64,000 bases of DNA from Stylophora pistillata (lineage: Eukaryota), in NCBI RefSeq assembly GCF_002571385.2, contig NW_019217891.1, positions 363,850-427,849 on the forward strand. The letters run 5' to 3'. Within the stretch, counting starts at the first letter, position 1, and every line of letters begins with the position of its first letter. Of the stretch, positions 2,803 to 4,754 are shown piece by piece. The position numbers and the translations under genes are program-made. A model generated the notes under the pieces. The model made no database searches. It was not told the DNA's origin and worked only from the letters and a program-made list of their open reading frames with translations.

Positions 2803-4754
2803 TCAGCGCAGACCGACACTAATGAGCCTTTTATCGACTGAATGGTGGCCATTGGTGTTAAAGGCCACACCTAAGTAACTCGAACTGGTTGATGCAGTAC
2901 GGAAGTAGGGGGAGACAGTATCGCCACACCAGTAACCACACTGCTTGTAACAACTTGTGTAACCAGAAACGAAGAAGCCACTGTAGAATGAGTCATCACA
3001 GATCAGCAGCTGGTAAGAGTAGGCATCGGTCACTCCCACACCTTCCCACAATTCATACGCAGAAGCGCCATTCCCATAATTTAAATTTGCCGTCATAGAC
3101 TGGTTGGTTTTTCGTTTGAAGTATACTTTAGCCAAAGTTTGACGATCCAAGAACATGATCTCTGTAAACTGAAGAAAAAAAAAATGATATTGCCTCGTAT
3201 TCTATGGTGTGAAATTCCGAGGTTTTTTTTATAGCCTCAGTCCAGGTTTTATGTGCTACACTATTCTCGTTAGTTATTTAAGTACAGTGTAAATATAGAG
3301 CAGCAACCCATTTTCCGTGCAGGGAATAGACATGTGCATACGAAATGAGTCATAACGAAAAAAATTGTTCAAAAAATTCCTCAATGAATTTAATATAAAA
3401 TACTAACAAACAATTCTGTACATTGACATACTTATGTGTGCGACATGCAATGAAATAAAAATGAAACAGTATTTGGAGATCCATGGGAACAGATACTAAG
3501 CGATCCATATTCATAGAGATGATAAGTTACTCAATCAGCTTACAGGGATGTTGTTACAGTTGGTCCTGTAGCCGTCACTTCCGTAAGGAAACTGAGCGTT
3601 ATATGTGACTTCTGTCCTGGGTTTGACATATTCATGGGTAGTGTAACACATGGTCCAACCTCCGTTGTATGACGTCATATCACAGTAGGCCCAGAATGCA
3701 TTAGAAAGACTTCCTTCATCCGGGTCCAAAAGATACATACCATCTCCCACAGAGTCACCTCGGCTCTTGATATCTTTGCAGTCTTTCCTAAGAGCTTGTG
3801 AAAGGAAAAAAAAAAACAGGAGATAAAGTTACTCGCGTCCATAACGATATTAGTGAATGAAGCAACAAGATATAATCTTAAGTATTTTCGCCTAAGGAAG
3901 ACAATCTCCGGATGGTAATAAGCTTAGTGAGCAAATGTCAACACACCTATTTGACAGAGCTTTCCCCTAAATCCTGGAGAGCATGCGCACTGATAATCGT
4001 CATCGTCGTACTTAGCCACGCAAGTTGCACCATTCATGCAAGGATTGTTGGAGCAAGGGTTCTGTTTTAAGTGAATGACTTGTCAGTAGCATAAAACAAT
4101 ATCGAGGACTTATTATTCAATTGAACAGCTATATCAAATGACGGTCTGTGATTGGTGGATACGAAGGTTAGACAAATCAGGAGAAGGTGGACTGATGAAA
4201 TTAGCTCGGCATGGATATTCTCGAATTCTCTTAGCAACTATAATGCTGTAAATTTATTGCACACAATTCCTCTGACAACAAATAAATTTGCACCGACCAA
4301 GATACTGACGTGGTTGAAAATCGGGCTGTAGATAAATTTATCTGAGTTGTTATACTTGTCCGATGGAAGTAGTTCACACAGCAGTTTTCCATTGACATCG
4401 GAAAATGTAGCCAGGTTGTAAGAAAAACATAAAGAGGCTTCCAAACAGGAAAATCCACACTCGCTGCCATCTTGGACAAGTTCTGAACCGATTCTTGTGA
4501 TGTTCAGGTAGCTAAACTGTTCGGTCTTCAAATTGAAGTAAGAAACGCCTCCTTGAGATACTCGGTTGATACCCGCTGAAGCGAAAGGAAAGCGAATTAA
4601 TCGTAGAGTGAATAAACAGAAAGGAAGAACGTATCCATACAGTATTGAAAAACAAATTGTTAGAGAAAGAACCTTGTGTCATGGCCAGTCCAAACAAGAT
4701 AAAGGTCAACTTCGTAAAAAGACAGCTTCTTTGTTGTGGAAAGATGTGTTTCAT
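2803..4754 (-). CDS. Secreted PAN/Apple-EGF-fibrinogen-like protein, cluster copy 1 (intact, 5 exons, 363 aa)
   Basis: Exons 4754-4673 (signal MKHIF...FILFGLAMTQ), 4575-4298 (PAN: ECGFSCLEASLCFSYN...CELLPSDKY), 4061-3947 (EGF: NPCSNNPCMNGATCVAKYDDDDYQCACSPGFRGKLC), 3794-3544 (DCKDIK...DGMYLLDP...AYCDMTSYNGGWTMC) and 3168-2803 (...LISVGLR*). All introns GT-AG, phases 1,0,1,0; total 1092 nt in frame. Confidence 0.88.

Follow-up and report, generated by a model that had tools for sequence, protein, structure and literature searches.

Gene structure and expression

Near the beginning of the window (the whole 64-kb stretch of DNA that was analysed), the minus strand carries a gene whose five exons translate exactly to P0002, a protein of 363 residues that is named by its source as an uncharacterized Stylophora pistillata protein. 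All of its introns are of the GT-AG type, and the exons are arranged as follows:

4673..4754, minus strand: exon 1, residues 1-27, with a hydrophobic stretch that is a likely signal peptide by hydropathy
4298..4575, minus strand: exon 2, residues 28-120, a PAN/Apple-like domain by the annotation of relatives
3947..4061, minus strand: exon 3, residues 121-158, an EGF-like domain (PF00008, E 1.2e-9)
3544..3794, minus strand: exon 4, residues 159-242, the fibrinogen N-subdomain (NEC module, about residues 164-208) and the start of a family-specific body
2803..3168 (stop included), minus strand: exon 5, residues 243-363, the remainder of the family-specific body

The hydropathy of P0002 peaks at 2.1 from residue 16, and nothing above 1.4 is found past residue 40. 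Exon 2 had no direct Pfam match to PAN, but it matched six relatives with PF00024 on record (phmmer E 1.5e-11 to 7.5e-4 in a 16-protein set). Together, exons 4 and 5 encode the 205-residue C-terminal domain considered here, and the motifs of exon 5 include C-x-K-x-C-x2-W-C-x-D, Y/F-R, G-V-A-F-x-x-N-G-H and a terminal S-V-G-x-R.

The gene is spliced and expressed: among the four of 24 RNA runs that were examined, taken together, the exons had RNA depth and each of the four exon joints was present. The joint between exons 4 and 5 (3544/3168, spanning 375 bases) occurred in contigs of two runs (X1, X3) and in a single raw read of a third (X24), and it was absent from X10. Positions 2655-2710 also had high RNA depth in all four runs, along with numerous loose ends, and correspond to a short 3′-flank repeat common to other transcripts.

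Gene copies and neighbouring sequences

In addition to the studied gene, the window holds four further copies with both domain exons and one rearranged fragment, which makes six copies or fragments, at least two of them broken:

21888..24828, minus strand: paralog 2, a likely pseudogene with a TAA stop within the last exon
32301..35017, minus strand: paralog 3, intact, equal to P0001 (368 residues), with a domain 71% identical
40234..42145, minus strand: paralog 4, with open frames in the EGF exon and in exons 4 and 5, and without the C315/C323 pair
42711..45130, minus strand: paralog 5, a likely pseudogene with stops in the PAN and EGF exons
47844..48059, one piece per strand: rearranged fragments of the last exon

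The 5′ part of paralog 4 was not found, and an assembly gap (42163-42293) adjoins it; paralog 5 is 89% identical to this copy over 2 kb. The original prediction had listed motifs that amount to 12, six per exon. All 12 are present in the studied gene, in the copy at 33.3/32.5 kb and in that at 41.2/40.4 kb, 11 are present at 43.7/42.9 kb, and the broken copy at 23.4/22.1 kb retains 8 of them. Genome-wide, 79 matches to exon 4 were found, seven of which extend through the family-specific part, and there are ten matches to the last exon, on three contigs. A second cluster lies on C508 (L013, L014), where two family genes, P0008 and P0015, stand on opposite strands.

Just upstream of the window, L011:7668-8740 is 94.6% identical to window positions 2068-3142 (last exon and 3′ flank) and lies beside a 1.1-kb N gap; it is either a recent tandem duplicate or a haplotype artefact. 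A 505-residue open frame, also upstream (L002), was considered as an intron-free copy and rejected, as it consists of an N gap beside a near-identical last exon.

Several other features were observed in the window. Orphan PAN-like exons are found at 30277-29987 (minus strand) and 11245-11524 (plus strand, frameshifted). Directly after the former, and inside the cluster, positions 28724-29425 (minus strand) encode leucine-rich repeats of the ribonuclease-inhibitor type (LRR_6, E 1.3e-32), as in NLR-like genes. A reading frame of the BTB-BACK-Kelch (KLHL) type occupies 62437-63699 (plus strand), and a serine-rich open frame of 443 residues without a Pfam match occupies 58806-60134 (plus strand). 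Two short frames at 260-586 (minus strand) and 19850-20272 (plus strand), also without Pfam matches, look by eye like retroelement remnants, and we take them to resemble Penelope-like elements. Likely transposons are a 2.4-kb repeat present in two copies with 97-99% identity (25442-27879 and 49080-51446) and a 1.1-kb self-inverted element (38788-39862).

Coverage of the domain by existing libraries

It had been claimed that exon 4 carries the N-subdomain common to fibrinogens and intelectins, and the libraries agree: the exon has the Cys pair and the YCDM..GGWT strands of this subdomain, matches NF040941 with 51.4 bits (cut-off 30), and is also partially matched by the COLFI (profile positions 31-85 of 233) and Fibrinogen_C (2-46 of 221) models of Pfam. 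A separate scan gave NF040941 47.9 bits at residues 164-207. NF040941 scored above 30 bits in seven of the eight proteins scanned, the exception being P0108. The NEC module has been described as a distinct unit, attached to cysteine-rich segments that differ between fibrinogen, collagen, neurexin, ficolin and intelectin (PMC2211786).

By contrast, what follows the module is not recognised. With exon 5, none of six copies matched Pfam at E values up to 5, NCBIfam gave nothing but one chance-level model (E 0.15), and PDB sequences gave nothing below E 0.48. Matches of exon 4 to PDB sequences, intelectin-1 being the top one, mostly stop by exon residue 55 and reach 74 at most, and the match of a family profile to the same sequences stops at the N-subdomain. 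Thus, no existing Pfam family matches the domain at full length over both exons, exon 4 being covered in part and exon 5 not at all, and the prediction that the scaffold carries a different body, as in intelectin, agrees with the lack of any library name past residue ~50.

When the whole of P0002 is searched, a weak Fibrinogen_C match appears (residues 161-296, profile 2-123 of 221, 26.7 bits with a cut-off of 22), and this partial match is the reason why automatic pipelines label the protein as a "fibrinogen C-terminal domain". Among 30 proteins, the reach of this model was 2-137 at most. In the ESM Atlas features, P0002 led to cnidarian clusters that are either unnamed or named COLFI/fibrinogen (0.95-0.96), and the P0108 repeat without N-subdomain gave leads below 0.9 only. 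Searches of viral contigs returned 27 loci, none of which matched past query residue 115. A literature search at the level of titles and abstracts, with supplements and most subscription journals outside its scope, found no description of this family, and six gene or protein identifiers had no literature match. The work defines a domain family whose first 50 residues lead databases to mislabel it as COLFI, fibrinogen or intelectin.

Conserved residues

True FReDs carry the motifs F-x-R-x-W-x2-Y-x2-GFG, EFWLG and FST-x-D-x-DND. All three had been reported as missing here, and they are indeed found in none of the five window copies and in none of the 145 family domains collected, while at least one of the first two is present in four of eight other N-subdomain loci of the same genome. 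The family has instead its own set of conserved positions. C196, G233, F259, D325, R332, F345 and R363 are invariant in the 145 domains, Q295, K317, W322 and N348 are conserved in at least 95%, and H350 in 84%.

Regarding the cysteines, C315 and C323 are both missing in seven of the 145 domains (and in two window copies) and one alone is missing in five, while C208, C238, C299 and C319 are missing all together in eight. These patterns of loss suggest four disulfides, with putative pairings. Beyond the N-subdomain, four acids are conserved, namely E220 (80%), E245 (88%), D300 (88%) and D325 (100%). They do not establish a Ca2+ site, and the Ca2+/acetyl motif of ficolins is absent from the family domains.

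Distribution of the family

Six last exons were combined into a profile, which recovered at least 107 longer proteins among 8000 scored candidates, and the family comprises at least 160 clusters at 50% identity (E up to 0.001). A total of 145 full domains were obtained from 142 of 247 collected proteins. Named members come from stony corals, Nematostella, two octocorals, the sponge Oscarella, the choanoflagellate Salpingoeca kvevrii and Myxococcota, with no bilaterian among the named matches listed, many other matches bearing no name. In GTDB genomes, the domain is encoded in 17 of 62 candidate stretches, and 14 of these 17 are titled Myxococcota or Deltaproteobacteria. At locus L041, a genome titled Enterobacteriaceae carries a domain that hardly differs from the ones in two Myxococcota genomes, so it is probably mislabelled or misbinned.

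The bacterial loci have a single intron-free frame with the domain at its very end in 16 of 17 cases, and the encoded proteins usually start, as read by eye, with a signal or lipoprotein-like sequence. As the domain lies within one uninterrupted bacterial frame, exons 4 and 5 of the coral gene can be regarded as one domain. It forms the C-terminus in 132 of 142 proteins. It is carried on stalks made of Ig-like, PKD, TSP3 and MopE repeats or is found next to LamG and SUEL lectin domains, and its partners also include P-domains. A different arrangement is seen in P0195, a Myxococcales protein of 6912 residues with the domain near its N-terminus and a C-terminal part that looks RHS-repeat-like by eye. 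Tandem copies in one chain occur in P0003, P0019 and P0108. In the last of these, three copies begin at the W-x-x-C-Y strand and lack the N-subdomain, and P0257 has one such copy.

Domains of corals and non-animals are ~35-46% identical. A quick unrooted tree was built with 100 rows, most coral rows being left out. In it, a branch with an SH-aLRT of 94 has on one side the 30 rows that were assigned to anthozoans, sponge or choanoflagellate, five of the anthozoan assignments being based on similarity alone. As the tree is quick and unrooted, no donor or direction of transfer is claimed. Judging from sequence comparison, the family is old and not specific to corals. Three observations thus go beyond what had originally been predicted: the family is common to bacteria and a choanoflagellate, its body can lack the N-subdomain, and other unrelated bodies are present in the same coral (see below).

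Predicted structure

An AlphaFold2 model of the domain, built with 109 sequences, has a pLDDT of 97.2 and a pTM of 0.93 and is mainly beta, whereas the last 90 residues folded alone without an alignment reached a pLDDT of only 31.8. FReDs have two B-subdomain helices; from domain residue 54 to 86 the model is free of helices, and both helices are apparently missing from the domain.

All of the closest structures belong to the fibrinogen fold. Foldseek placed intelectin-1 first (E 1.8e-6, TM 0.48), with all listed matches at TM 0.52 or lower, the highest being tenascin. In a wide search of 48,161 chains, the top seven were all of this fold (Z 7.6-9.8; next 4.1), including intelectin-1 (Z 9.8, rmsd 4.0, 183 aligned residues), FGL1 (8.8), fibrinogen (8.5) and H-ficolin (8.4). 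A second comparison gave similar values for intelectin (10.3), XEEL (10.1), tenascin (10.1), ANGPTL2 (9.6) and angiopoietin-1 (9.3). TLDc-domain matches (Z 3-4) were rejected as lying within the background, and BFVD contributed phage fibrinogen-like proteins (TM 0.40-0.49).

Overall, the model aligns about equally with intelectin and tenascin, with Z values of ~10, rmsd of 3.4-4.0 and TM of 0.52 or lower. Although such middling Z values are common in structural searches of this kind, we trust the fold assignment given the clear sequence homology of the N-subdomain and the end-to-end coverage. The alignments span model residues 1-205 (156-183 aligned), so the model speaks for the predicted retention of the fibrinogen scaffold, and both ficolin and intelectin-1 align with it from end to end. 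On this model, the domain would be a distant, roughly equidistant branch of the fibrinogen fold that is neither FReD nor intelectin.

Two other interpretations bear on these comparisons. The first is that the domain is a highly diverged intelectin (X-type lectin), since intelectin-1 is the top match by both sequence and structure and the sponge relative is named "intelectin-1-like" by its source. We find this highly improbable, as the sequence match is limited to the N-subdomain, the domain has 205 residues rather than ~280, identity is 13-18%, and the Z values are within 1 of those of tenascin and ficolins. The second is that the domain is mainly structural, that is, a cap for oligomerisation or for the binding of mineral or mucus, comparable to COLFI in collagen chains. 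Its C-terminal position and the N-subdomain that it has in common with COLFI agree with such a role, and FREPs, not identified as this family, have been reported in Nematostella cnidocyte gene sets (PMC12549020). However, the procollagen C-propeptide aligns poorly with the model (Z 3.8, 112 residues), the coral protein matched no family of the collagen or coiled-coil kind, and tandem copies within one chain suggest multivalent binding, which makes a structural cap quite improbable.

Proposed function

The reading that we favour, with moderate confidence and on the basis of the predicted fold, is that the domain may be a lectin-like head in which the fibrinogen A/B scaffold carries distal loops of its own that would bind microbial or cell-surface glycans. 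The signal peptide would export the protein, the PAN-like and EGF modules would provide a stalk or a second binding site, and the domain would be presented at the tip of the secreted molecule. Disulfides C164-C196 and C315-C323, with two more among C208, C238, C299 and C319, would hold the loops in place. Residues Q295, D300, K317, W322, D325, Y330, R332, N348 and H350, in the last third of the domain, may form a putative binding site at the place occupied by the sites of FReDs and intelectins. The basic ones among them would suit an anionic ligand, for which Ca2+ is perhaps unneeded, and tandem duplication together with the decay of copies could diversify specificity.

The ligand sites of ficolins and intelectins are located in the last third of the domain (PMC7858579, PMC11084424), and a Ca2+-dependent carbohydrate site is described as the defining feature of intelectin (PMC11084424). 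The former source also describes a C-terminal carboxyl buried in a salt bridge in fibrinogen-related lectins (PMC7858579), and the terminal invariant arginine of the coral family (R363) fits such an arrangement. Moreover, long bacterial surface stalks, tandem copies, neighbouring lectin domains and conservation over distant taxa, taken together, suggest that the ligand is small and shared, for example a glycan.

Nevertheless, some observations weaken the proposal of a lectin. The ficolin motif is absent, D300 and D325 are the sole conserved acids of the last third, and many fibrinogen-fold matches with equal Z values (tenascin, ANGPTL2 and angiopoietin-1) bind proteins rather than sugars. The domain could be a head that binds proteins in the extracellular matrix, with a role in adhesion or signalling, comparable to the fibrinogen-like globes found in tenascin, angiopoietin and FGL1. 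Tenascin scores on a par with intelectin (Z 10.1 vs 10.3) and has the highest Foldseek TM, the EGF-rich architectures of P0049 and P0192 resemble matrix proteins, and the TSP3 part of one bacterial carrier resembles, below the cut-off, the cell-cohesion protein MtsC. On the other hand, the identity between coral and non-animal domains would result more easily from a small shared ligand than from a shared protein partner, and we consider a protein-binding head possible but, on the whole, unlikely. Invariant polar residues over very distant taxa might also indicate the catalytic site of a surface-acting enzyme, formed by D325, R332, K317, N348 and H350. Given that no enzyme is found among the fibrinogen-fold matches and that H350 is conserved in only 84% of the domains, such an activity is extremely improbable.

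Within the lectin-like reading, a role as an immune receptor is weakened by the small size of the family, with only seven exon-4 matches in this genome covering the family-specific part, and conservation as strong as that between bacteria and corals is more in line with a fixed ligand than with an arms race. A more far-reaching version, which we regard as speculative and rather doubtful, is that the domain represents a third lectin branch of the fibrinogen fold that would predate animals. It would be common to bacteria-eating myxobacteria and choanozoans (possibly through gene transfer); sponges and anthozoans would have retained it, and bilaterians would have lost it. Its ligand would be a conserved anionic glycan of microbial surfaces, bound at a new site that may not require Ca2+, and its body of 160 residues would be a domain in its own right, able to work without the N-subdomain. 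If this were true, corals would have an unrecognised family of pattern-recognition proteins. Even the simpler proposal, if the domain is a lectin, would provide a candidate microbe-recognition family for corals and sponges, along with a confident model, a small set of residues as targets for mutagenesis and easily expressed single-exon versions from bacteria.

Other bodies on the same scaffold and comparison with known systems

Among 20 of the other matches to exon 4 that were examined, there are canonical FReDs and members of at least three further families with bodies of their own, each ending in a similar terminal strand. In profile-profile comparisons, three other coral N-subdomain families and coral FReD exons align with the studied family locally, over 48-97 columns, the range for the further families being 51-97 columns. 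A second coral family (L016, L017, L018, L023, L032 and L033; contigs C646, C1673, C550, C33 and C8) joins the N-subdomain to a different body of ~190 residues with a W-P-x-H-D-P motif and the end N-P-H-G-x-I-F-I-R, and has many copies on C646. A third (L019-L022 and L024-L026) ends in K-C-I-A-G-Y-C-Y-L-N-K-P-I-W-V-M-V-R, its copies being 68-91% identical and spread over several contigs. A fourth body, of ~215 residues after the N-subdomain, was found as a single copy among the loci examined (L015, C25:83200-84300).

A comparable situation has been described in placozoans, where clustered genes encode secreted "intelectins" whose alignment with vertebrate intelectins is confined to a short N-terminal FReD, while their C-terminal part is conserved among themselves (PMC6321704). 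No Trichoplax protein was among the named matches listed, and these "intelectins" were compared by description only. Together with the other coral families, they indicate that body swapping is a habit of the fibrinogen scaffold. The domain studied here is one well-conserved, unnamed case of it, and the other coral bodies temper the surprise. The presence of several unrelated bodies on this scaffold in one coral genome opens a wider view of the origins of FReDs and intelectins.

Compared with known systems, the domain is like the NEC module (NF040941, GGGWT_bact) at residues 164-207. However, that model has 46 positions, and the following ~160 residues lie outside it and occur without the module in P0108 and P0257. 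With COLFI (PF01410), only the N-subdomain is alike, and the coral protein has no collagen helix. The resemblance to canonical FReDs (PF00147; ficolins, tachylectin 5A, FIBCD1, tenascin and angiopoietin) is broader, as the overall fold, the length, the N-subdomain and the terminal strand are alike (Z 8.3-10.1, 156-174 aligned), but the three core motifs are missing throughout the family, the Pfam match is partial and the set of cysteines is different. Intelectins (4wmq, XEEL 4wmo and the lamprey LSVL 7e1e) are the best structural match (Z 9.8-10.3, 177-183 aligned): they have the fibrinogen scaffold with a distal part that is not that of a FReD, and they are secreted, as the coral protein likely is. 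By contrast with them, the domain is ~75 residues shorter (rmsd 3.7-4.0, TM 0.44-0.49) and has no sequence match beyond the N-subdomain, the coral protein has a PAN-like and EGF N-terminus, and the family is found in non-bilaterians and bacteria.
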